From positions 2,976,001-3,040,000 of the forward strand of contig CM035355.1 of the NCBI GenBank assembly GCA_020137815.1: a DNA stretch of 64,000 bases, read 5' to 3'. Within the stretch, counting starts at the first letter, position 1, and the number at the start of each line of letters is the position of its first letter. Below, piece after piece: positions 16,148 to 60,969 of this stretch. The DNA comes from Hormiphora californensis (taxonomy: Eukaryota; Animalia; Ctenophora). The position numbers were made by a program, and so were the translations under genes. The notes beneath the pieces are model-generated. The model had not been told where the DNA came from. It did no database searches and saw only the letters and a program-made list of their open reading frames with translations.

Positions 16148-19100
16148 CTATCTGAGGCGCTCTCTCTCCTCTTCCTCCCAGGCTGCAAGGGCCTTCAACT
16201 GAGCCTCTGACAACTTTTTAGTATCCATGGCAACGTTTCCTGGGGTACGGTTTAGTGTGATTATTTGTTATATTCTAACCTCAAGGCGCGCGAAACAGAG
16301 TCTAGCTAGACAAGTAATAATTGGGTGGAGAGAGACAGGTCGTTATTTGGAAACCACAATTGGATAAAGTTCGGGGTAGATGGTACTTGCGAATCAGGTC
16401 CTACGGTAATTCCTATCCAGCTTGGCGGTAACTACAGAACGTTTACATGATCGCTCAATAACTCACCACTGTTTTCCCGTGATATCTGATCAGTGTGGTC
16501 CTTAGCGCTGAGCATGGCCCCGTTGACTGGTACCACGGTCCTTCTAGGGGGCTCAGCTGGTTTAGCTCCGTTCTGTTGTCCCATCATGGGTCTCTTGATG
16601 GGTCTTGCATGTGGCTGGGAGGGGTATTGGGTGTTAGTTTTCTGAGGCAGCTTGGGTATAAATCATTGGATATGATCAATGGAATAAATTTATCAGGATT
16701 GGAGGAATTACTACTGGGGTCACTATAATATCATTCTGAGAATCATAGCGTGACCTGTAATTCTAAGGATGATATCTCTGGAGGTTTCTAAAGAAAGCTT
16801 AAGTATTCCTTTACACGAAAACTGTCCCCCACTGAAACCCAGATTACTAAAAGATTAAGTTACTATACCTCAAGTTCTCGTTTTGTTCGGGGATGGCTAC
16901 TCTTCATTATGGTTGTAGCGGTGTTTTGATGTGATGAAGGGGTCGATGATGGGCGGGATGATTGGGTCGATGTTGGGCGGGATGATCTGTTTGGTGTCGA
17001 ATATCCCATGTTAGGGGAAGAACCCTGGACCGGCCGGGACGATTTGTTATTGGTCGGTCGGGGTCGAGCTGTGCCGTACAGGGATCCCAGAGGATTGTAT
17101 CTGCAGAAAAGAGGATTGTCGTTTGGAGTTGGTGGAATGATCAGCTTAGGGTGTCTCCTGGTATGAGACGGTTACGTAGGAGTGAGGGAAAGAAAGATAG
17201 GGTAAGAGGGAGAGAAACTGAGAAGTAAGAGGTAAAAGATTTGGCCTTTTTATATTTCGTAGGACTGTAGGGACCTTTACCATATACCGCCATATAATAT
17301 TCAAATATGAGTGATAGAGTCGAGTGATGATAAGTGAAGACTGAAGAGTGAAGAAAGCAAAGGGATGCCGTGACAGGTACAAATTCAAAAGTGAGGTAGA
17401 GGGGGAGAGATAGAGGGAGATAAAGGGAGAGATATAGAGGGAGAGAAAATAAGGAGATGAAGAGAAAAGGAAAGGGAGATATAGATGGAAAATAAAGGAG
17501 AAAGAGGGTAATTTGTCACATACCCCATCCTTGAGGGAGGCGTGTTGTCCAGGACAGCACGAGTGGGTGCCTCAGCTAGGAAGTCATCACCGGTGTACCG
17601 TCGAGAGGTGCCCGTGTAACCATGGTAACTGTTGTTGGGTGATGTACCGTTGTTGTTATAGTAACCTGGAGAGGGAGAGAGATCGTGAGATTCTTGTCAT
17701 GTTCCGGGTTCGTGAAACATATCACCCCCTGGTCACAGCTCAGCAAACCCGACATACAATAAAGAATGTGGGGTAACATTATTTCCATTAGTTCCGGTGG
17801 CATGACCCCCCACTTTTGTAATATTCTTGTATTGTTCATACCATTATTTTTTATTTTATAAAATAATAGTAGTGCCCGGGGGGACGTCCAAGAGAAATTT
17901 AGAACCTTTCCTCCCAGCTCTACCCCAGCGATCTACAAATGTTGTATGTAAGATGGCAAAATGGTGCCAGGAAGTTTATAGTGTCAAACTTGTTAGGTAT
18001 CGTGTTGAAATGAGTGAAAGATCAGGATAGGGTGTGAAAAATACCACATCTCCCCGTCTCCTCATATAATATCACTACGTCACAACTCTCGTGTTACAAT
18101 TTCTAAATTTCTGCAGAATTTTCTATCTACCCCCTTCTTGTTACAAAATGGGCATTTCCAAGATGAGAAGCACAAAGATCAAAACTCTCTAAATCGATCT
18201 CTAAAGCACTCACCGTTTGTAGAGACAACCCCAGCCCTGGGTCGATATGAGAACTCACCGTTTGTAGAGACAACCCCAGCCCGGGGTCGATATGAGAACT
18301 CACCGTTTGTAGAGACAACCCCAGCCCTGGGTCGATATGAGAACTCACCGTTTGTAGAGACTACCCCAGCCCGGGGTCGATATGAGAACTCACCGTTTGT
18401 AGAGACAACACCAGCCCGGGGTCGATATGAGAACTCACCGTTTGTAGAGACAACCCCAGCCCGGGGTCGATATGAGAACTCACCGTTTGTAGAGACAACC
18501 CCAGCCCGGGGTCGATATGAGAACTCACCGTTTGTAGAGACAACCCCAGCCCTGGGTCGATATGAGAACTCACCGTTTGTAGAGACAACCCCAGCCCGGG
18601 GTCGATATGAGAACTCACCGTTGGTAGAGACTACCCCAGCCCGGGGTCGATATGAGAACTCACCGTTTGTAGAGACAACCCCAGCCCTGGGGTCGATATG
18701 AGAACTCACCGTTTGTAGAGACAACCCCAGCCCTGGGTCGATATGAGAACTCACCGTTTGTAGAGACAACCCCAGCCCTGGGGTCGATATGAGAACTCAC
18801 CGTTTGTAGAGACAACCCCAGCCCTGGGTCGATATGAGAACTCACCGTTTGTAGAGACAACCCCAGCCCGGGGTCGATATGAGAACTCACCGTTGGTAGA
18901 GACAACCCCAGCCCGGGGTCGATATGAGAACTCACCGTTGGTAGAGACAACCCCAGCCCGGGGTCGATATGAGAACTCACCGTTTGTAGAGACAACCCCA
19001 GCCCGGGGTCGATATGAGAACTCACCGTTTGTAGAGACAACCCCAGCCCGGGGTCGATATGAGAACTCACCGTTTGTAGAGACAACCCCAGCCCGGGGTC

Positions 19101-22100
19101 GATATGAGAACTCACCGTTTGTAGAGACAACCCCAGCCCGGGGTCGATATGAGAACTCACCGTTTGTAGAGACTACCCCAGCCCGGGGTCGATATGAGAA
19201 CTCACCGTTTGTAGAGACAACCCCAGCCCGGGGTCGATATGAGAACTCACCGTTTGTAGAGACAACCCCAGCCCGGGGTCGATATGAGAACTCACCGTTT
19301 GTAGAGACAACCCCAGCCCGGGGTCGATATGAGAACTCACCGTTTGTAGAGACAACACCAGCCCGGGGTCGATATGAGAACTCACCGTTTGTAGAGACTA
19401 CCCCAGCCCGGGGTCGATATGAGAACTCACCGTTTGTAGAGACAACCCCAGCCCGGGGTCGATATGAGAACTCACCGTTTGTAGAGACAACCCCAGCCCG
19501 GGGTCGATATGAGAACTCACCGTTTGTAGAGACAACCCCAGCCCGGGGTCGATATGAGAACTCACCGTTTGTAGAGACAACCCCAGCCCGGGGTCGATAT
19601 GAGAACTCACCGTTTGTAGAGACAACCCCAGCCCGGGGTCGATATGAGAACTCACCGTTTGTAGAGACAACCCCAGCCCGGGGTCGATATGAGAACTCAC
19701 CGTTTGTAGAGACAACCCCAGCCCTGGGTCGATATGAGAACTCACCGTTTGTAGAGACAACCCCAGCCCTGGGTCGATATGAGAACTCACCGTTTGTAGA
19801 GACAACCCCAGCCCGGGGTCGATATGAGAACTCACCGTTTGTAGAGACAACACCAGCCCGGGGTCGATATGAGAACTCACCGTTTGTAGAGACAACCCCA
19901 GCCCGGGGTCGATATGAGAACTCACCGTTTGTAGAGACTACCCCAGCCCGGGGTCGATATGAGAACTCACCGTTTGTAGAGACTACCCCAGCCCGGGGTC
20001 GATATGAGAACTCACCGTTGGTAGAGACAACCCCAGCCCGGGGTCGATATGAGAACTCACCGTTTGTAGAGACAACCCCAGCCCGGGGTCGATATGAGAA
20101 CTCACCGTTTGTAGAGACTACCCCAGCCCGGGGTCGATATGAGAACTCACCGTTTGTAGAGACTACCCCAGCCCGGGGTCGATATGAGAACTCACCGTTT
20201 GTAGAGACAACACCAGCCCGGGGTCGATATGAGAACTCACCGTTGGTAGAGACAACCCCAGCCCGGGGTCGATATGAGAACTCACCGTTTGTAGAGACAA
20301 CCCCAGCCCGGGGTCGATATGAGAACTCACCGTTTGTAGAGACAACCCCAGCCCGGGGTCGATATGAGAACTCACCGTTTGTAGAGACAACCCCAGCCCG
20401 GGGTCGATATGAGAACTCACCGTTTGTAGAGACAACCCCAGCCCGGGGTCGATATGAGAACTCACCGTTTGTAGAGACAACACCAGCCCGGGGTCGATAT
20501 GAGAACTCACCGTTTGTAGAGACAACCCCAGCCCGGGGTCGATATGAGAACTCACCGTTGGTAGAGACAACCCCAGCCCTGGGTCGATATGAGAACTCAC
20601 CGTTGGTAGAGACAACCCCAGCCCGGGGTCGATATGAGAACTCACCGTTTGTAGAGACAACCCCAGCCCGGGGTCGATATGAGAACTCACCGTTGGTAGA
20701 GACAACCCCAGCCCTGGGTCGATATGAGAACTCACCGTTGGTAGAGACTACCCCAGCCCTGGGGTCGATATGAGAACTCACCGTTTGTAGAGACAACACC
20801 AGCCCGGGGTCGATATGAGAACTCACCGTTTGTAGAGACAACCCCAGCCCGGGGTCGATATGAGAACTCACCGTTTGTAGAGACAACCCCAGCCCGGGGT
20901 CGATATGAGAACTCACCGTTTGTAGAGACAACCCCAGCCCGGGGTCGATATGAGAACTCACCGTTTGTAGAGACAACCCCAGCCCTGGGTCGATATGAGA
21001 ACTCACCGTTGGTAGAGACAACCCCAGCCCGGGGTCGATATGAGAACTCACCGTTGGTAGAGACAACCCCAGCCCTGGGTCGATATGAGAACTCACCGTT
21101 GGTAGAGACAACCCCAGCCCGGGGTCGATATGAGAACTCACCGTTTGTAGAGACAACCCCAGCCCGGGGTCGATATGAGAACTCACCGTTTGTAGAGACT
21201 ACCCCAGCCCGGGGTCGATATGAGAACTCACCGTTTGTAGAGACAACCCCAGCCCTGGGTCGATATGAGAACTCACCGTTGGTAGAGACAACACCAGCCC
21301 GGGGTCGATATGAGAACTCACCGTTGGTAGAGACAACACCAGCCCGGGGTCGATATGAGAACTCACCGTTGGTAGAGACAACCCCAGCCCGGGGTCGATA
21401 TGAGAACTCACCGTTTGTAGAGACAACACCAGCCCGGGGTCGATATGAGAACTCACCGTTTGTAGAGACAACCCCAGCCCGGGGTCGATATGAGAACTCA
21501 CCGTTTGTAGAGACAACCCCAGCCCGGGGTCGATATGAGAACTCACCGTTTGTAGAGACAACCCCAGCCCGGGGTCGATATGAGAACTCACCGTTTGTAG
21601 AGACAACCCCAGCCCGGGGTCGATATGAGAACTCACCGTTTGTAGAGACAACCCCAGCCCGGGGTCGATATGAGAACTCACCGTTGGTAGAGACAACCCC
21701 AGCCCTGGGTCGATATGAGAACTCACCGTTGGTAGAGACTACCCCAGCCCGGGGTCGATATGAGAACTCACCGTTTGTAGAGACAACCCCAGCCCTGGGT
21801 CGATATGAGAACTCACCGTTTGTAGAGACAACCCCAGCCCGGGGTCGATATGAGAACTCACCGTTGGTAGAGACTACCCCAGCCCTGGGGTCGATATGAG
21901 AACTCACCGTTTGTAGAGACTACCCCAGCCCGGGGTCGATATGAAAACTCATCATCCTCCTCATCAGATTCACTAGACCCCACATCTTCTGGTCTCATTA
22001 GTATCGCATCCTCCGCCTCTTCATCTTCCTCCTCACCGGAGCTAACCCTCTTCCCTCTTCCCCGGACATTATCATCGTCAATGTTGTGCTCATAAACCTG

Positions 22101-25100
22101 CAGAACAGAGATTCTGGTACTACATATTGCTAGGCAAAAATCAATTGATAACTGCTTGAAGTTTCCAAATCACGATATATCTAGTTAGCATGGCTAGACA
22201 ACAGTTTTAGAAGGATATAACTATTGGCACAAAGCCATGGGAATATTGCCATACCTTCATAGCACGCTCCGTGAGACGACCTATTTCAGATATTTTGGGT
22301 CTGGGTCTCCGTGGTGTTACTGTGGAGACTGCCATTGGAGATGAACTAGTTGTACTGTGAACAACACTGGGGGGAGGAGGGTGGTGAGAGGGATGGTACA
22401 GACAAACATTCTTACTCAGATAATTCTGTCAGGCCAATGCTCTGACCGCGGTTCTCGCGGGCAGAACAGGAAATGAGAATAGGGTCAGGTAAATGCTCTG
22501 ACAGGTAGAGCAGGGCTAGTACTCAGTATAATATATCAGGAGAGAGTTAACAATTATATAGCTGTGTGTAAATGTAATGAGGAGTCACTTGCTGCTTACT
22601 TGTTGTTAGATGATCGAGGTGTAATTAGGCCACCAGCAGAGTGTAATCCCCTCTGTAACCGACTAGTAGAGTACACTGACTGGGGGAGTACCGTGCCCGT
22701 AGCAGGGCGACCTTGGGGTGTTGAAAATCGGACAAACGCCTTCATTTGGGGTCTACCTTGGTTCGGCCTGAAAGAGGTAAGTTAGTTTGGGATTTCTTCC
22801 TGTAAGAAGCCTGATCTAGGTAGATATCAGACCCAAGAAGACAAGCTGACAAAAACACACTCACTCAGTGTACCTTGGGGCAGAGTGAACTGTAGAGTGT
22901 TGTAACTTTGGTTTCTTTCTAACTTTAGTAGTACTAGGAGTCCCCCGGGCCATCAGGTGTAAGTTGAGTTTCCTGAACTTTTGCTGTAAGTGTAGGTAGA
23001 GCAACAACTGAGGAGAGAGGGGCTTTATTGGAACATGTGGGTGATAGAGAAAGGAGAGAATAGAAATTGAAGTACAGAATACAGATACTTCATAAAATGA
23101 CCGTCTTCATCATGGTTTCCTCCTACCTGTTCACAAATTGGACAGTACCAGTCCTCTTCAGGTATAACCTCAATGGGAGGATGCAGGCAGGCCATGTGAT
23201 ACGTAGCAAGATCACATCCATCACAAAACAACATCTATGGGAAAGTGTCCGTTGGTTGTACATTGTATAACATGCACATCTCTACACCGCTCTATCCCTT
23301 CCCTTCCTCTTGTCCGATTGACTCCGTTCTTTTTGGAGCTGTCCCGTCGTGCCGTGAGGTATGTAGGTGTGTTGGGGATGGGAACGGGGGTACAGGCATG
23401 GCTGGCGGGGAGTAGCTAACACGTGGTTTGGGCTTGCTAAAATGTCATGTATTTACATGAAAGAGGGCTGCGCGGTTACACTCTCACAGTGTTTGCACGC
23501 TTTACTTTATTTACCCCCCAACTGCGCGGTGAAATGCGCGCGCGGTCGATGGAAACTCCGCTCGCTCCCTTCTTCCCCCACACACATCTCTGCACTGGAA
23601 TGTCGCTATATACCACCAACTACATAGTACATACCAACTACATAGTACATACCAACTACATAGTACATACCAACTACATACCGTGTCTAGATTCTCTGAT
23701 CCCTGGCAAGCCCAGCACCGGTCCTCTGGTTCGGAGGGTTTCTTGATCTCCTTGATGGAGGGTAGGGTAACAAGGATGTCCAGGAACTGTCGAGTAATCC
23801 GGCACGCAGTGTGAAACTGGGGCTTCCTGAGGAGGTCGGTGTACATTGTTCATTAACAAAGAGAAACAAGTACATAGTTCATTAAAATAATGGGTGTTTT
23901 TTGTAACTTCTCCCTTTCTCTTGATTTCAGTTTGACAATCATACTACTTACTAAGCAAATTGTGTGACAGAGATCACCTAGCAACTACACTTGCACGTGC
24001 AATTATTAGAGCGACCTGGAGAGATCTCTCCCGGTTGCAGTTGGGTACCAAGGGGAAATTCAATTCTGCACGTGCATTTACTTCTGTCCTTATGTCTAGC
24101 TCTTCCACCCCAAGCGCTATTCGACAACGGTTATATGGGTCCAGAAGATCTGCTGCTGTCAGAGAGCAGGCTAGAGAATATGACAGATTACGCCAACGTG
24201 TTCAAGCGAGCCAATCAACCACTGAGGATAGCTTTACCCAACGTCGCCCAAGGGTGATTACTCCAGTCGAATATAGAAATCTCCGAATCGGCTACATAGC
24301 GGTCAAGTTTTCACGTGATGAGTTTCTGGAACGGCACTGCACCTCCATGACATTGATCTCTTAAATTCGGACCTTGACATTGTCAGGAAGCCCAGAGCGT
24401 ACAACAACATGAGTAGGGAGAAAGTGAGAGATAGGCTAGGAACGGATGGTGCAGGTGATGTCAGCGTTCCCTAATCAAGCTACCATTTCCGCGAAATTCG
24501 CCCGTAGGGCGAACGGGCCTACTAGTGAATACTAATGGGAATGAAAGAAACCATCAAACCATCAAGCTTTTATCTCTCATTACATCTTATCTCTCCCCTT
24601 CAAATATTAAGATATCCTAACTTTTCAAGAAGCCCCTTTGCTTCTTTTTCAACGTTAGATAAATGCAGTACAACTATAATTTTACTATGTATGGCTGTTT
24701 TCTTTTAACTAAAAGATTCAACTAACAGCGGCTGAATTGGTAATGAAATCGAAATATTGGAAGAAATAAGTTATCACTCAGTATTATACTCACTCCCAAC
24801 TTCCCCTGCTTGCTAATCCCAATTCCCCTCTCCCTAATATACCATATATGGTGTTCCATACCTTATAGGGTGCTCCAACATGGGTCTGCTCATTGCCTTG
24901 GTCCGTGCCACATCTGCAGGGACCACTGCACCCCCATTAGTCTTGTTTGTAGAGGAGGAAGAGTCTGTGGAGTTACCTCCGTCACTGGGCTGCTTACCTG
25001 AGGGTTGAATTGTTCATACGGAAACAGTGACAAGCGACTCAACCTGAGGGACTGTGGAGAGGGAATAGGGGAGGGCCGAGGGGTGGGGAGAGAAAGAGTA

Positions 25101-25404
25101 GGTAGGGCAGTAGGGTAGATGGATAAAATACCCGGGAGGACAATAGAATTTCCATTTTCCATCAAACACTAAGATGTCAGCCAACACCTTTCCTTGCTCG
25201 ACCCTATCTCACCGGGATTTGAACAAAACAACCACCAGTCTATTATAGATTACTACATTTGAAAAGTGTGTAGATTAATACTACTACTACAATGTGTACC
25301 TCTTGAAATACTGAGAAACTTCTTGGATCTCTTCCGGGATTTCGCCAGATCGATTGCCCTCTTGTACTGAGGGAGTGAAGCAGGGGTAAGTGGGTGGAAG
25401 AGGA

Positions 25405-25451
<47 letters not shown>

Positions 25452-28400
25452 GATTATCGCAAACGATTCTGCGAATACAGCTGTGCACAGAGCAAGAATC
25501 AAGATCAACAAACTAAAGTACTAGGGTGATCCATAATGATTGTCACTTGGCTATTATCTCCCAGATTTTGAGTCAGAACCAAATAAAACCTATTCTACTG
25601 TTTAGTATGGACATTTTGCTATCGGAAATCAGTTTTTATATCGTAGACGAACATACGTCACCTTCTTGACACCCGAAACAGAAAGTGGTATCGAAGGCGC
25701 CGTCTCACGTCAAAAAATAGGGTGACACACTTCATGTTATGGCATCAAATTCTTAGGGTAAATTGATATGCGACTGCATTATTATCTGGAACCATAGTCT
25801 TAGCTTTAAAATGAACCCAAAAATTCGCAAAAAGGACTTCAAACTCGGCGCTGGCAAGGATTTTAGAAAACAGTGTTAATTTTTGGTTTTTCAAGTTCCA
25901 GCAGCGCTTGCCAGACCAAATGACATTGCATTGACGTTTCAAGCATTAGAAAACTTAGATTGGACCATTTCTAAGCTGTATAAATAATTGTATTGACAAT
26001 ATCTCGTGTTATCTTTTCAATGTACTGTTCTTAAAAACTGATCTCCAAAATGGCTGTTTTTCAGGTCAAAATTTTCCTATTTTTCTTCAATATTTTGGCA
26101 TTTCCACCAAATAAGCCTTAACTCGCAACAAAAAACGCTTGATTCTCTGTTGCAATGGTACTGCCGCTACCGGTTAGTGAAGGTTTCAGACATTTTTAAA
26201 TGTTTTGCTGGCCATGGGAGCCCGAAAAAGGGTAAGTGAGACGCTTCTCAGACCAACATGTCTAATCCAAAGAAAAAATATTAGAAATCGACCCTCAAAT
26301 AAGGCGATAAGTATGCAAATTGACTCTATTTTGTCTCCTGAATCAGATAAAACAAGCCCCAAATCATTCTGACGAGTATTTCTTGGTAAAAACCCCAAGT
26401 GACAATCATTATGGATCACCCTAGTAATACAGAATACAGAATCTAAAACAGTATCTGAGTCAGCTCTTACCTCGCTATCTTTTTCTTTCTGTCCCTCGGT
26501 CTCTTCCTCACTATCCTCCCCACTTTCTTCCTCATCTCCCTCAAACTTGTACACCTTCCTGTCTGTTATACGCAGACTCTTCCTCTCCTGGGGAGTGGGA
26601 GGGGGTTAGGGGTTAGGGAAGCTTTGACTCTTCCTCTCCTGGTGAGGGGGGAGGGATTAGGGAAGCTTTGGACCGTTCCTCACGTGAGAGTCTGAACAAG
26701 ACAAGGGAATCGCTGTGTAGCTCACACTGCTCTGTGAGGGCTTGGCAGAATTGAACAAGGGAATTGATGATTTGGGTGACACTTTTTAGAGTTTAGTCTA
26801 GAGATTTAGTAAATATTCAATTAAGTGTGATAGCTGAATCATAATCATGATAATCATTGGTAACTAATAGGTTTTCACACTAGACAGTAGACACATACCC
26901 CGATTTCATTCTTCCTCACTCGATGCTCAATATCAAGATCCACAGTGGTCGGTTCCTTCACTTTTTTAGGTTTCTTCCTCTTCTCAGGCTCCTCTACTGG
27001 CGTGGGAGGGCGAACCTGGGCCAGATACACCTGACCTGTAGACAAGGTGGGGTAAATAAGGTGGTACATCATCCAGGGGCTGATTGGGGGCCGATTGTGA
27101 CGAGATGGGAAATTCTTAGAACTCGGATGATGACTTGGTTACGACTTGGTTACGAAGTTACCCCTCCCCTACCATACCGGGCGTTAGAGGGGTTATTTCG
27201 TAACCAAGATGATGACATGCCAGATTGACATGCCAGATTGGATTGTCATTTTGTCAATGAATATATGCTATTTCACTGCCATTTATAAGTACTTGACATG
27301 ACACAATGTGTGTAACAAAAGTACATAGTTGATTTACTGTTCATACATCTGTGCAGTTTGAGGTATGTAGTTTAGCATGAGGTATTAACATTACAATGAA
27401 CAATGACTGATCCCTCTCTTACCTATCTTGGTAACTTTGATCGCAGCCTCGCTCTCATTAGGTCTGATCTGCTCTAGTACCCGGGCTAACTCCGTGTTGT
27501 TCGAAGATAGGAGGGTCCAATTAGACCCATCATAGGGAGGGCGCCACAGGTACAGTCTGTGTGATTTCTCATCGTCCTGAAAAATGGAGGAGTATCCAGA
27601 TTGAGCTGAATTGTCATAGGGAAAAGGTCGAAATCTAAACTGGACCAATAGTAGCGTAGGTCTAGGGTGCAATATTTACTGTAAAAGGTAAAAGCCCATT
27701 TCTTGCACCAACTGTTCATGATTAATATCCTAAATAAGTAGTACATTCTTGCTATAATAGGTGATATATGCGTGTATGCCGGAGAGAGTATTTTATCAAT
27801 GTAGGTTCATATTTGTATGTCTAAGGCCCGATGAGGGTGAGTCCTATCTTTCTAAGGGTACATGTTACTAACCGTGACAAGCCAGAACTGGTTGCCGTCC
27901 ATATCTCTGCCGATGGGGTCAAATCGAAGGGATTCCGGATGGTATTGCGAGTTGAAATCACTTTTAAACTTGGTATTCTCATCAAACTGACTAAGACAGA
28001 TCCGCAGCATTATTGATAATTTAGTTGTGTTCACAAGTCTTTTGAATGTCTGGTGGCCAGACAAGATACCGTAAAGTTCTGGATCCCGATATCGAAAAAA
28101 CCGGCAGAGAGTTTGAACCAGTTTCTCTGGATTTGTGACTAGTCCACATCTGTGGAGAAGAGAGATAACGAGCCTTTCCACTGCATTGCAACACGCTGAA
28201 ATAGAGATAGAGTTAGATATATAACATGGCCAACTTACTTTAAACTTAGTACCTCGGTACGGAGTGGCTTAGGGCTTAGAATTGGGGATAAGCACCTTTC
28301 TAAGTTCACTTATTATCTTACCATCAAAGTACAAATCAGGCTCTAAGGATGTGTAATCTAGGCCATCCTCCAGTGTGTCTAGAGAGAGGGAGGGAAGACG

Positions 28401-28793
28401 TAGCATCCACCCGAAACTATCCATAAATTGTGCAATGTTTAGAAAATCAGGGTGGTTTGATGATCTTGGTAGAGGTGGGATAACTTTCACCTCGCTCTTG
28501 ACCTCTTCCTCAGACTGTTCGGTCTTAACTTCAGTAGGATCTTCAGATTTAACTTCAGTAGGATCTTCCGATTTAACTTCAGCAAGGTCTTCAGATTTAA
28601 CTTCAGCAGGATCTTCAGATTTAACTTCAGCAAGGTCTTCAGATTTAACTTCGAAGGGTGGTTCTAACACTTTGGATTCAAGGGGAGCAACAGGTTTAGA
28701 TGGAGAAACAGGTGGAGTGGTAGGAGCTTCCATTTTGATGAGATCCGATGGAGCTACCGAGGATGGCGAGGGCTGCTCCAGTTCCTCACTCAT
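16148..28793 (-). CDS. RSF1: Remodeling and spacing factor 1-like protein (DDT-like, WHIM motifs, PHD finger)
   Basis: ATG at 28793. N-terminal HPDFLNIAQFMDSFGWML; WHIM2-like LRFDPIGRDMDGNQFW; RLYL...WTLLSSNNTEL; PHD finger split over two exons (CWACQGSENLDT|MLFCDGCDLATYHMACLHPPIEVIPEEDWYCPICEQ). About 17 exons, mostly phase-checked (e.g. 22098-21908 joined to 17665-17524), ending ...EEEERERLR* at 16148. The exon near 16.5-16.7 kb is less certain. Confidence 0.8.
18209..21950 (-). repeat. 45-bp tandem array (~83 copies) in an RSF1 intron
   Basis: Unit CTCACCGTTTGTAGAGACAACCCCAGCCCGGGGTCGATATGAGAA, nearly homogeneous, with a few SNP variants and four +1 G variants (~18690, 18780, 20761, 21890). 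Confidence 0.97.
22426..22504. repeat. ~80-bp dispersed element with CTGTCAGGCCAATGCTCTGAC-type ends
   Basis: The same element appears inverted at ~45530-45608. The end motif alone recurs at ~15814, ~60276 and ~63827. Confidence 0.6.
25519..26426. mobile_element. Non-autonomous TIR element (~0.9 kb) in an RSF1 intron
   Basis: Termini TACTAGGGTGATCCATAATGATTGTCACTTGG / CCAAGTGACAATCATTATGGATCACCCTAGTA resemble those of the 906-1810 element. No ORF; TSD not resolved. Confidence 0.75.
27135..27207. mobile_element. Tiny MITE of the TTGG...CCAA family
   Basis: TTGGTTACGA...CCCCTC / GAGGGGTTATTTCGTAACCAA with a 9-bp TSD GATGATGAC (27126-27134 and 27208-27216). Relatives at ~36654, ~37138 and ~49591. 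Confidence 0.75.
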
Positions 28794-29216
28794 CCTAACA
28801 TGGGTGAAGTATCTTGGTTAATTTTATAAGAGGATAAGTCATAAGAGCGTGCCGAACAGCAAACGCTGAAGTACCTATGCCACGAGGGGGGCGTCGGCGA
28901 GAGCGGGGGCCAGGGGGGGCTTCAGTGACACGAAAAGAAATTGATCCTTTAAGTGAGTAGGAAAATGACTGAGGAAACATTTTCGAGTTGGCATATGGTA
29001 CAGCCGTCACAAAATTTAAAGGCAGACACGAAATCGCATTTCTTCAAAAACAGAAAATTTCGCCGAAATTTCGGCGAAATTGTTTGAAATGATAAGTTAT
29101 AATAAAAGAAGCCACATGCATCTGGCCTAACAATGTCAATAATAATATATATAAATTGTTTTTGCCTGGCCGGCTACACGAAGAAAATCACATAAAATGC
29201 ATGCAACAGTTAAAGA

Positions 29217-29583
29217 CTAGTATGTATGGTACAGATCTGATGAAGAGCCATCATTCTTGTTCCTTCCTCTGTAACCCCGAATAGAACAAGTTATGGAGCG
29301 GACCATTGAAAATGATAGACGAACACGGAGGTATCGAATACACTCCTGGTAGGTATAGCCAGTTTTCCGCGATTTCTTGGTTGCGAGTTGCTTCAGAGTT
29401 CTGCTGAACTCTTGACCAAGTCCACCGGTCGTTGACATAACGAGGGGAGTAAAAGAAGCTTTTTCCACCTCGAGAATGCGATGTAGATAATTCTTCTTCT
29501 TCCCTTCCTCGTGCTTGATATACGTTTGAGGGATATCCTGAGTCTCATTAGACTGTGCCCTTGGGTTAAAAACCCTTACGTCG
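29217..29583 (-). mobile_element. 5'-truncated non-LTR retrotransposon fragment (restriction-like endonuclease C-terminus, CRE-like)
   Basis: Translation DVRVFNPRAQSN...KHEEGKKKNYLHRILEVEKASFTPLVMSTTGGLG...RLSFSMVRSITCSIRG matches the typical C-terminus of RLE-type non-LTR elements. Confidence 0.75.
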
Positions 29584-29890
29584 AAATTTCGGATTGGAAA
29601 TTTCGCGAAATTTCCAATCCGAAATTTGTCAGATTTTGGTGATAAATGTAAGATGCTTTAATTGACACACGCTTACTTTTATGCTTTGCGATGCATTTTC
29701 GCATGATCGAATGCGCGCGCGTTCGATTCGCGGAGTTTTAAATTCGAAACTTTTTTTAAAAAAAAGGAGTTTGTGCTCAAATTTTTTTCCTGAACAAAAA
29801 TTTGAATTTTCTAATATTCTTCTTCTTGAGTAACGATAATCACATTCCCTTCGTATCAACCGTGTGCTAACCTATGATATAGGTCGGAAT

Positions 29891-31508
29891 ATGGCAAAGT
29901 TAATTCAGCGGTTCAACCTGACTGGGCGGGTAACGAAGGGATTTGGGCGGGGAAGCAAGGAACTGGGATGCCCCACAGCAAACATGGACGAAAAAGCGGT
30001 GTTAGCTGCATCCCATCTATCTACGGGTGAGTTTTAGTGACTGTTGCTCTCTATTTTACTCCTTAAATGCACGTTAGCACACTTTGTGAATTTCAGCGAC
30101 TACTCACGGAATGATGAATGGCGTCCACTACTCGCTTCTGTGTCCTAAACCATCAGAACGAGGCATTGTCTTTATTCCCGGATTTACCTCTGGAAAATCT
30201 ACTCCTGATTGCTCGGCACTGTCCGAGTTTTGTGCTGCCCGATCCCGGAATTTTCTTTGCTACGATCCCCGGGGGTTGGGTGAATCTGAGGGGAGATTTC
30301 AGGATCATTATCTAGGGGATTGGATCCAGGACGCATGCAACATGGTGGACTTGATGAAGGAAACAACCAACCAACCGCCTGTAATTATTGGTCAATCAAT
30401 GGGAGGTCATATAGCCTCTAAAATTGCTCAGAACCAACTCTGTGAGTTTTCTTCTATGATTCTCGTGTGTCCAGCGATTAATTTCGGCGGGATCTTCCAT
30501 GAATGGGTTAATAGCATTATTGGAACTGAGCAAAGAAAGGATTTGATGGATGGCAAAGTTATATCAGTCGATTTGGGGAATTTTGAAGACTGGGAACCAT
30601 TTCCCTACAGCTTGGCACTTAGAGACGACTTCCTCTCGAATAATTTAACTACATCCACTATTCCTGGTCAGTTTCCCCTGAGAATTATTCAAGGATTGAA
30701 GGATGAAACTATACCATACGAATGGGTCCTAGACCTGAACCTTCAGGATGTTTATGAGACTGAGGATTTGGAAATTCGACTGCTGAAATCTGTGAATCAT
30801 TCGGTTTTGAGTTGCGAAGCGGGATTGCGGGCTGTAACAGATGCACTAAATGAACTGTGTTAGAAATTACAATCAAATCTTTCTTTATGTACCGGGTACC
30901 CTAACACAAATAATTTCTGATAAATTACATCTATCTCTGTCTTAGTTTTAATTTCATCGTTTTCTGTTAATTCTAAAGATCGTGTCTTATGTAAAGCATT
31001 CTCAAACAGCACACCAAAAACTAGTAACCCTTTTCTCAACACAAGAAGAATGTTAGTCACAATACCCCATCCCCACTAACTACAGGTATCTACTACGGGC
31101 TGGCTTGTGTGGGCAACGGACCAGTATACAAGGCAGTGACCAGTGTGGGCTGGAATCCGCAATACAAAAACGAACACAAGAGTGTCGAGGTTCACATAAT
31201 GCATGATTTTGGGGAGGATTTTTACGGGGAAACGCTTCGCTTCATGTTTCTAGGTTAGAATAGTGAACACTGCCCTCTTCGATCGATCTGCTAAATCCGT
31301 TGTCAACAAACGTATTTATACTGAATATTTTCTCCTAAACACATTTCTTCCAACAGGGTACATCAGAGATGAGATGAAATTTGATTCATTGGAAGCTCTT
31401 ATTGAAAGGATTAACCTGGACATAAAGGAGGGAGTGAAGCCTTGGAAACACATCTCCACTTATCAGAAGATCCATTCTTCAAATGACCGGTGTAATGTGG
31501 GGTGTTAG
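29891..31508 (+). CDS. RFK: Riboflavin kinase (3 exons)
   Basis: Exons 29891-30026, 31086-31253 and 31357-end give GRVTKGFGRGSKELGCPTAN, GIYYG, SVGWNPQYKNEHKSVEVHIMHDFGEDFYGE and LGYIRDEMKFDSLEALIERINLDI. The true stop may be at 31486 (see findings). Confidence 0.95.
30111..30863 (+). CDS. Intronless alpha/beta hydrolase, ABHD10-like, nested in RFK intron 1
   Basis: 250-aa ORF with VFIPGF (oxyanion region), YDPRGLGESEG, GDWIQDA, nucleophile elbow GQSMGG, IIQGLKDETIP (Asp) and a C-terminal NHS (His). Confidence 0.88.
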   Translation: MMNGVHYSLLCPKPSERGIVFIPGFTSGKSTPDCSALSEFCAARSRNFLCYDPRGLGESEGRFQDHYLGDWIQDACNMVDLMKETTNQPPVIIGQSMGGHIASKIAQNQLCEFSSMILVCPAINFGGIFHEWVNSIIGTEQRKDLMDGKVISVDLGNFEDWEPFPYSLALRDDFLSNNLTTSTIPGQFPLRIIQGLKDETIPYEWVLDLNLQDVYETEDLEIRLLKSVNHSVLSCEAGLRAVTDALNELC

Positions 31509-31870
31509 TTAATTTTGTAGCTGTTATGTTCTTATTAAGGAAAAGAGTCTTGAAAAGTGGTGTAAGGGTGCATGTTTATTGAATTTATTAGTTTCGTTAG
31601 ATATAAATATGGAATGGAATGCATGGAAATAATCCTGTTCTTATAATCCTGTAACTTATTAAATGTTAGTTCTGTAGAGCAGACGATTGGTGTGTCCTAT
31701 GATTGTGACGCCTTTGTTATTCAATTCTTACATATTCTTTTGTATGTTTTTTTTTGCTTTCTGTAACATCACAACATCTAGAAGTTTGGTAAATTTATTT
31801 AACAATTCAATATATTATTTCGTGACTAATTACTTAAAACACCCATCTCCACTACCAGCTGAATGTCAAT

Positions 31871-34367
31871 ATGTTTAAGGGCGAGGTAGCTCAGAGAGCT
31901 GCCAGAGTTCTAGGGAATGTGATTAGGGAGCCTATCAGTAAGAAGGACCACCAACTACTACAACCCTACCTAAAGGCTGCCCGGCCTGTTCAACCTCAGG
32001 TATGCATGATCTTATTTTGTGCGAGGAAGGAGTGTCGAACAAGGCATGATCGCCCTCATTCCCTTACTGGTACCTAGTTTGATTTAAAATCTTGCTTGTG
32101 GTACGTGAGTCGTGAATATCAGTTGCGAGAGAATACGAAAGAGAGAAAGATAGAGCGGAAAGGGAGAGGGAAAGAGAGAGGACCAGAGAGAGAGAGAAGG
32201 ATAAAGAAATATATCATGTACATGATGCTTGTTAGAGGAGGGTGAGATTCCTTCCCACGCCCTTGAGATGCAGGCCGCGGCTAATGTCTACTTTTTTAGA
32301 TAGCAATAGTGTCCTACAGACCAGGCAGGGAATCTTCAGGGGTGACCCGGCATACCCCGGGGTAAACCATGAAGCTCTTGAACTGCCTGGAGCATCTCAC
32401 ATACCACTCCAAGGAAACAGAGCTGCCCTCCTTGGGTGGTGTGTTTTTCTCTCTTCCTTTCTCTAATCCGCTCATGACTCTTCTCTCTCTGAATAGAGAT
32501 ACCCCCCGGCCGGTATTACACCATCTCCCCAGCCTTGTGCACTGGGCCAAAGTAGATGGCTAAATACCGGCCAAAACCCGTCCTCCAGCAAAAGTCCAGG
32601 CTGGAGGAGGTCTAATCTCAACTGGCCTTCCTCTACCTTCTGTCCACCTAGCCTCTGGACAGGTATAAAAGGTCTAACAAGCTAGGTCATAACTGGTTAG
32701 CTACCACCGACTCTCGGCAAAATTCCCACGCCGAGGTCGAGATAAACTCAAGGGGTGTTTCCGTAGCCCAACAGGGAGAAACTACACTAACCAGTAGCCT
32801 CGCTACTACCTACGCTTCTTCAAAAGTCCATGAGAAGCGTAGGAGATTCCCAAATGGCGATTACCCCCCAAACGATGAAGGTAACAAACCAACATCATCC
32901 CTCTCTACCAACAAACAAGCCTCCACAAAAACCTGATCAACAAACAGAACAAACCACTATCCCATGCTACAAAACAAATTTCTATGAGTGACACACATAG
33001 ATACCTAACCCACTAAACATTTCACACGCCAGAGTTCCGTTAATTGGGAAGGAACCTGCCCTAACTACCCCATGAACGGCCGGACGCTGCATCTGCATCA
33101 CGAACAAAAAGTGATGTTCCATGAACCCGCATGGAGTACTGATTACAAATCAGAGGTTGGCAGCGCAAAATCTACAAAGGTGCCATAGTCAATGGAGCGT
33201 CCGAATTGTCCTAGCCAAGGCCACATCTAAAGCGATCAATGCTGAGATGCCACTCACCAAGGATCGCTGGAGATATCCGAGACTGGCACAATGTGAAAAC
33301 AGTGCTGGTGCGGTCCTTTTCATGGGACCTGTCAAGGCAGCTATGGGAGACGATTCCACCCTTATCTCCAAAACCATGGACACAAGACGGAGGAAGAAAA
33401 CTCTCCCGGGGGAAAGAGGAAACTCTGGAACCTGAGCTCCGTCCTTCTCGGGCGTGAGGAACTGGCTGCCGGACGGGATAAAATCACAAGTAGAGGATTG
33501 GAAGCGGAGGCGCATACAACAACAACAACAACAAATGCTTGTTAGAGAGATTTCAAAGTGGGACCTCATAATAATTCGCACATTATGCATTGTACAATCT
33601 GATCTATTCTGTCATTATTTTATGTCTGAATGACCCTTCTAGCCTTGTTCGACCCTCTCTCTCTCCGTGCCCTGGTAAAGGAGGGTTAGAACATAACAAC
33701 CCTCTCTCTTCGCAGGAGGTGAACTGGCATGTTCCGACCCAAAAGATGACTGACCTGACGAGAGAGATGAGGAACATAGGACTGGCTAATGATGGATACA
33801 TGAATTTTACTGATCTAGTAGGAGGAATCCGGAAGGAGAGGGGTCTCAATGTTTGGAGGGACATCGTCCTGGGACATCATATTAAAATGCTGAAGAAACA
33901 TCATGCCATGAGGAAGATCGAGCTAACGGTAAGAAATATATTTGATTCCTCACATCAATTTGTAACTGCTGCATCTTGATCTACCGAACCCACGAAATAA
34001 GATAATGGTGTGAGCCACACAATTACTGTTTTCTCCCCATCACAAATCATTTTGAGACTAACCACCTCCTCCTATTCCTCAGGATGGTGCATTCAAGACA
34101 GCAGGTGTCCGTGGACAGACGCCCCTGGACGACTACTTCATGTGCCACAACAATGTCAGAGAGAGCTGGGTCACTAAAACTAGGAGATGGAACACTGAGT
34201 ACGAGAGGAGGACTGGAGAGGTTCCCTTCCAGCTGGGGTATCACACTGATATTGCTAGGTTACAGAGTGAGGATAAGTTGGTGGAGCTGAAGGTGGCTAA
34301 GGATATTAATCCTAATGGGCTGGTGAGGAAGAAGAAGAAGATGATACCGGGGAAGAGGAGATCATGA
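31871..34367 (+). CDS. MRPS33: Mitochondrial ribosomal protein mS33-like with a long C-terminal extension (208 aa)
   Basis: Exons 31871-31999, 33716-33928 and 34083-34367 (all phase 0). AQRAARVLGNV and NWHVP...MRNIGLANDGYMNF...IRKERG align by eye with mS33 (SRLSARLFGEV; DWYP...LRFLGLYRDEHQDF...LRG). Confidence 0.72.
32300..33560 (+). other. Unique non-repetitive intronic block, possibly a decayed retroelement
   Basis: Coding-like composition with broken frames and a (CAA)n run near 33515. No diagnostic motif recognised. Confidence 0.25.
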
Positions 34368-34647
34368 AGATTGTACTGCCGTGTTATTTATATCTTTCTG
34401 TTGCACTTTCATTGCACGTGTATTGGGTATTTTAACACCGGCGACTCTACAGTCTACACCCCCCCCCCCATCCCTATCCCAATGTATTGAAAACTCCCCA
34501 TCCCAATGTATTCAGTATTGATGCCGAAAACTCTAAAATCTACCACCAATTCCCTGACAACAAATCCCTTGATTTTATACCTCGCCCCATATCATAAACA
34601 GAGATCTGCTATAACTAATCGGCCCCTAATTAATTACCAACTATAGG

Positions 34648-60969
<26,322 letters not shown>

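Follow-up and report, generated by a model that had tools for sequence, protein, structure and literature searches.

A hydrolase gene nested in the first intron of a riboflavin kinase gene: spliced-leader acceptor or shared first exon?

Introduction

How does a gene that lies wholly inside an intron of another gene, on the same strand, obtain the 5′ end of its own mRNA? The question is raised by a hydrolase ORF of 250 codons, which reading-frame and Pfam analyses place entirely within intron 1 of a riboflavin kinase (RFK) gene, parallel to its host. This nesting is not a product of chance. The original prediction held that RFK exon 1 can be spliced either to the remaining RFK exons or to the hydrolase, which might thereby borrow the basic kinase N-terminus as a targeting leader; addition of a spliced leader (SL) in front of the hydrolase was named as an alternative.

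The setting that we infer is a pleurobrachiid ctenophore that trans-splices. In the ctenophore Hormiphora californensis, at least 56% of Iso-Seq reads bore the SL; the same study counted 2357 nested genes in 1654 hosts, many of them parallel to the host (PMC8527503). Since nesting and SL addition are both frequent in Hormiphora, their combination is the explanation that base rates suggest here. How parallel nested genes of ctenophores are processed is stated to be open in the same source, and the 1.6-kb locus described below offers a compact test case for it. All positions refer to the window, i.e., the whole 64-kb stretch of DNA that was analysed.

Organization of the locus

The features of the locus and of the neighbouring genes are collected in Table 1. 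The RFK start codon, the RFK donor, the proximal acceptor and the hydrolase start codon were all found where they had been predicted (29891, 30026, 30096 and 30111).

Table 1. Features of the RFK/hydrolase locus and of flanking genes (window coordinates)
Feature	Positions	Strand	Basis
RFK start: CTAAC resembling a branch point, with an AG (ends 29882) 8 nt ahead of ATG; likely SL acceptor	29867..29890	+	sequence
RFK coding exon 1: 45 codons + 1 nt	29891..30026	+	PF01687 residues 6-34
Spacer of 70 nt from RFK donor to proximal acceptor TTTCAG; 37% GC; no YTRAY	30027..30096	+	sequence, intron comparison
14 nt from acceptor to hydrolase ATG	30097..30110	+	sequence
Intronless ABHD10-like alpha/beta hydrolase, 250 aa	30111..30863	+	Pfam, homology, fold
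222 nt: presumed hydrolase 3′ UTR, then CTAAC and distal acceptor of RFK intron 1	30864..31085	+	sequence
RFK exon 2	31086..31253	+	Pfam; RNA-like contig match
RFK intron 2, 103 nt	31254..31356	+	reading frame
RFK exon 3 to stop	31357..31508	+	Pfam, reading frame
MRPS33-like gene, 208 aa; AG 12 nt before ATG 31871; 350 nt after RFK stop	31859..34367	+	frames, X1 contig
2-oxoacid dehydrogenase E1 gene; AG 1 nt before ATG 34648	34647..41660 (3′ end not delimited)	+	E1_dh, Transket_pyr
Divergent gene, weak DDT match; AG 1 nt before ATG 28793; continues below 22000	22000..28794	-	Pfam

RFK exon 1 contains the first strand, the GFGRGS flap and the PTAN motif of the flavokinase domain and ends, after 136 coding nucleotides, in phase 1 at a G/GTGAGT donor. 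When 30026 is joined to 31086, and 31253 to 31357, the product is a riboflavin kinase of 151 amino acids with PF01687 matching on all three exons, as had been expected of the distal acceptor at 31085; the flavokinase domain, flap and PTAN motif included, is present across the spliced exons. Joining 30026 to 30097 leaves an open frame of 300 amino acids, RFK exon 1 followed by the hydrolase, with no stop and with the junction residues that were foreseen. The caveat that came with this prediction holds too: an in-frame phase alone is a one-in-three event. The 14 nt between the proximal acceptor and the hydrolase ATG would be a 5′ UTR if an SL is added there; if the two frames are fused, they would supply about five in-frame codons, possibly part of strand beta-1. 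The spacer contains a second AG, at 30077, which is out of frame with RFK. Downstream of the hydrolase stop codon, only variants of the poly(A) hexamer are present, at 30908-30924, and no canonical AATAAA was found in the interval up to the distal acceptor (30864..31085).

RNA-like contigs were available from run X1, which represents a more distant species; they are spliced and about 80% alike in conserved exons. They join exons of the MRPS33-like and the DHTKD1-like genes, with exons 1 and 2 of the former in a single contig. Searched at 85% or 80% likeness, run X1 left the hydrolase and RFK exon 1 uncovered, which, with contigs only some 80% alike, is uninformative on expression. The one RFK contig matches 31082-31257, covering exon 2, and continues for about 59 nt upstream of it, unbroken at the junction, which speaks very slightly against frequent alternative splicing in the species concerned.

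The nested ORF encodes an ABHD10-like hydrolase

The hydrolase ORF matches PF12146 (E 1e-13), and its best sequence match in the PDB is mouse ABHD10, 6NY9 (E 1e-18). A fold search was led by the same structure together with two alphaproteobacterial proteins, 3LLC and 8TRF (TM 0.79-0.82). The product has an alpha/beta fold with a cap, ABHD10 being the nearest among solved structures, and its Ser96-Asp198-His230 triad is invariant in all ten aligned sequences. What it shares with ABHD10, 3LLC and 8TRF is this standing as best sequence or fold match, the Ser-Asp-His triad and the cap region. It differs from ABHD10 in having no N-terminal presequence, a short N-terminus and a long branch in a clade of its own. 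We class it as ABHD10-like, not as ABHD10, since it has no presequence and is only a possible orthologue of animal ABHD10. That the ORF lacks a presequence had been correctly noted: the net charge over the first 23 residues is +1 and the fold starts immediately. Since there is no presequence, we would expect an esterase or thioesterase that works outside mitochondria.

Closest among the proteins matched is a gene model of Pleurobrachia bachei, which begins at the same methionine and shows 96% identity in the aligned part; three further relatives show 40-44% identity. In a quick unrooted tree of 88 rows, few of which are named, these four sequences and the hydrolase form a clade (support 99) that lies outside a 63-row group (support 98) holding named prokaryote-type sequences. 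Close to its C-terminus, the P. bachei model carries insertions of 8, 2 and 26 aa that are absent from all relatives and are likely gene-model or assembly errors.

In the ESM Atlas, the hydrolase matched generic ABHD10-like clusters, while RFK exon 1 gave no informative match. In two metagenome pattern scans, none of 30 and one of 86 matches proved to be relatives. The single locus recovered (L001) encodes a distant homologue, and inspection of its ORFs by eye revealed no RFK frame. At 2259-2726 of L001, the methionine at which the fold starts is preceded, within the ABHD10-like frame, by basic residues resembling a presequence; the gene is arranged head-to-head with a multi-exon gene. A search with RFK exon 2 gave one match, which is distant.

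Acceptors and introns in the window

Five other genes were modelled in the window: RFK, RSF1-like, MRPS33-like, DHTKD1-like and one with a Far-17a_AIG1 Pfam match (FAR-17a/AIG1). Their starts, at 29891, 28793 (minus strand), 31871, 34648 and 13613, and 32 introns were modelled from reading frames. The starts were picked by ourselves and the motifs were chosen after looking; four further RSF1-like introns, not in frame, were left out of the 32.

At each of the five starts, a YAG lies 1-12 nt ahead of the ATG and a YTRAY upstream, compared with 115 of 1046 background ATGs (11%), which is a large excess; YAG alone precedes 42.6% of the latter. There is thus nothing unusual, in this window, about an acceptor 14 nt from the hydrolase ATG. 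The acceptor preceding the RFK ATG is likely an SL acceptor. TTTCAG occurs within 15 nt of just 7 of 1046 background ATGs and ends 5 of the 32 modelled introns, and because of this combination, the acceptor at 30096 is probably real.

The hydrolase acceptor, a CAG without YTRAY, is unlike the other gene starts. Gene-start acceptors have TAG in four of five cases and YTRAY in all five; among the cis acceptors, CAG is found in 26/32, TAG in 3/32 and YTRAY in 11/32 (Fisher p 0.0025 for TAG and 0.01 for YTRAY, both post hoc). TAG with YTRAY at gene starts may be a signature of trans-splicing in ctenophores. Scored with a matrix over four window sizes, the proximal AG ranks 6-26 among the 47 AGs of RFK intron 1, and only 0-3 of the 32 cis acceptors score below it, while the distal AG at 31085 ranks 1-4. 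The AG at 30077 scores below 30096 at all four window sizes.

The modelled introns (n = 32) measure 103-1716 nt with a median of 161 nt, and many fall at 103-131 nt. The spacer, if it were an intron, would undercut the smallest of these by 33 nt. No paper on ctenophore intron length was found in the literature search. No match to an SL RNA gene was found in the 64-kb window, and a scan for bacterial promoters, which does not apply to this DNA, gave results at chance level.

Proposed spliced-leader addition at the proximal acceptor

To our mind there is a somewhat better than even chance that the hydrolase receives the 5′ end of its own mRNA by SL trans-splicing at 30096, as far as this can be judged from sequence. 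Transcription would begin at the RFK promoter or within RFK exon 1, because donor and acceptor are just 70 nt apart. A spacer of this size is likely below the local minimum for an intron, so the RFK donor would be unable to use 30096; it would skip to the stronger site at 31085 and leave the proximal acceptor for the SL. RFK exon 1 would then be a discarded outron whenever hydrolase mRNA is made, the protein would start at its own ATG without any kinase sequence, and the mRNA would have its 3′ end at about 30.9-31.0 kb. The prediction that had offered 30096 as an SL acceptor thus fares better than the shared exon to which it was appended, although the site does not have the TAG/YTRAY signature of the other gene starts.

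An outron has no usable donor ahead of the acceptor. SL is added at unpaired acceptors (PMC3074122), and in C. elegans, cis-splicing took over when a donor was introduced upstream of a trans-splice site (as cited in PMC3074122). At the present locus, a strong donor does lie upstream of 30096, at a distance below that of all 32 modelled introns. The upstream RFK donor is the main difficulty for SL addition, and we infer that the short spacer resolves it. In flatworms, cis-splicing is reported to be strongly prevented at SL acceptors that resolve operons, and SL acceptors are often shared with cis-splicing (PMC12582326). By analogy with such sharing, some reads joining RFK exon 1 to the hydrolase could exist here without having a function.

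With the parallel nested genes of Hormiphora (PMC8527503), the locus has in common that a whole gene is contained in one same-strand intron, in a lineage where most mRNAs receive an SL. It differs in the short distance, 70 nt, between host donor and nested acceptor, and in the frame that this donor shares with the nested ORF. The published list may include this RFK/hydrolase pair. A description of the locus was not found in the literature searched, the searches not having paired both gene names. The locus suggests a rule whereby spacing below the minimum intron size may shield the acceptor of a nested gene against the donor of its host.

A possible shared first coding exon

We regard it as unlikely that RFK exon 1 is a coding exon common to both genes, its donor being cis-spliced to 30097 to give the 300-aa fusion or to 31086 to give RFK. 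Such a fusion is in frame and free of stops, a strong donor lies 70 nt upstream, and the TTTCAG acceptor, a CAG without YTRAY, is of the kind that ends cis introns. Its 70-nt intron would, however, be smaller than any of those modelled, and the tract score of 30096 is weak. The unbroken RFK contig, albeit from a more distant species, does not favour it either. The fusion was found neither among three hydrolase matches (137-438 aa) nor among the 100 proteins matched by exon 1; none of the latter contains a hydrolase domain, which is weak evidence, as the set holds no ctenophore RFK. In a weaker form of the same idea, RFK exon 1 supplies only a promoter and a start codon to the hydrolase.

The N-terminus of the hydrolase itself gives the fusion some appeal. 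Read from its own ATG, the ORF is missing most of strand beta-1, so that its description as a complete hydrolase was generous. From the first ATG to strand beta-3 there are 18 residues, compared with a family median of 31 (the motif used for this measurement was found in 132 of 151 homologues). In the clade, the distance from the first methionine is 18, 17, 10 and 5 residues. These N-termini may be genuinely short, or they may belong to gene calls cut at an intron, an example of which is provided by two homologues of 218 and 280 aa (P0117 and P0271). An alignment of the four closest relatives revealed neither a presequence nor a piece of RFK. Adding the five upstream codons brings the distance to 23 residues, near the shortest of the otherwise complete homologues. 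In an AlphaFold model based on an alignment of 122 sequences, the residues forming beta-1 include those of four codons upstream of the ATG, which would suit a fusion. With 11 sequences, an alignment holding little information there, the strand vanishes (pLDDT <50 for residues 1-14), but this control has low power, as beta-2 was itself barely formed. The family HMM gains just 0.3 bit from the upstream codons.

In its strongest form, in which the 45 RFK residues act as a mitochondrial presequence of the hydrolase, we consider the fusion highly improbable. Mammalian ABHD10 is mitochondrial (PMC13625376), and the first 23 RFK residues, which end at the flap, contain six K/R and no acidic residue, a net charge of +6. 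Over the same 23 residues, 25 of 100 RFK homologues have a net charge of at least +5 and 46 have no acid, with only two reaching +6. The basic N-terminus thus appears to be largely a family trait, and the small excess of charge keeps the idea of a leader alive. Against it, three acidic residues follow after position 23. In addition, PF01687 begins at residue 6 of exon 1, which aligns to the core of solved riboflavin kinases; the exon is part of a folded catalytic domain and not a separate presequence. The proposal that exon 1 serves as a targeting leader is accordingly less well supported than SL addition, the exon being catalytic and the spacer shorter than all 32 introns. That a catalytic RFK exon, joined through a 70-nt intron, both completes the first strand of the hydrolase and replaces its lost mitochondrial presequence strikes us as quite improbable.

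Precedents nevertheless exist for both leading readings, the SL-processed nested gene and the shared exon. Sharing of a promoter and a 5′ exon is familiar from the cholinergic locus ChAT/VAChT, where the exons concerned are non-coding. CPNE1 and RBM12 likewise combine two unrelated coding sequences under one promoter, one of them intronless in an intron of the other, but the exons they share are non-coding (PMC2568002), while at the present locus the upstream exon is coding and could be discarded by SL addition. Closest to a fusion are the plant genes rps14 in sdh2 (maize, rice) and rps7 in trx-m3 (Passiflora), each nested in an intron and sharing the frame of the host's first exon, as here; in those cases, the shared exon is reported to encode a genuine transit peptide, with RNA evidence for the splice (PMC7488351). 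The RFK exon differs from the rps14/sdh2 arrangement in being a kinase catalytic domain, PF01687 starting at residue 6, with no separate targeting exon. Should most of the product turn out to be the fusion, animals would have an equivalent of plant rps14/sdh2, with a catalytic exon as leader.

An independent start and other possibilities

Also improbable, in our opinion, is a hydrolase transcription start inside RFK exon 1 or the 70-nt spacer with no splice at 30096, or with SL addition at 30077, TTTCAG being incidental. The weak score of 30096 by the local matrix and its lack of YTRAY would fit such a start, as would the second AG, which does not keep the RFK frame. In Hormiphora, as many as 44% of the reads are without an SL, the authors treating their count of SL-bearing reads as a lower bound (PMC8527503). 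On the other side, TTTCAG so close to an ATG is rare, very little space is left for a separate promoter, the other gene starts all carry an acceptor, and 30077 is the poorer site at every window size. That the ORF is an unexpressed or decaying insert is extremely unlikely: the lack of X1 coverage, uninformative as it is, and of a canonical AATAAA would agree with it, but 250 codons are open, the triad is intact, and both the near-identical P. bachei model and the wider clade speak against decay.

Neighbouring genes

The MRPS33-like product resembles what we take to be mitochondrial ribosomal protein S33, though no MRP-S33 Pfam domain was found in it. The E1 gene, presumably DHTKD1-like, begins about 280 nt beyond it and is the source of 19 of the reference introns. 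On the opposite strand, the divergent gene, which we assume to be RSF1-like, is separated from RFK by a head-to-head spacer of about 1.1 kb.

Along 29891-41660 of the plus strand, RFK with its nested hydrolase, the MRPS33-like gene and the DHTKD1-like gene follow one another in tandem, with an acceptor just before each ATG. The region is a candidate operon of mitochondrial or flavin-related genes. Within an intron of the DHTKD1-like gene (41196-41420, plus strand), a frame of 75 codons matches AZUL at E 0.0012, below the cut-off, and is possibly another gene's exon, or a chance frame.

The head-to-head spacer holds a frame of 146 codons (29217-29657, minus strand) that has no Pfam match and that we presume to be akin to a retroelement fragment; two related palindromes, at about 29056-29081 and 29583-29627, flank this region. 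The first exon of the RSF1-like gene (about 28520-28650, minus strand) encodes short peptide repeats of the VKSED type. Farther away, a tandemly repeated unit of about 39 bp occupies about 18200-21900 and gives rise to long repetitive open frames on both strands.
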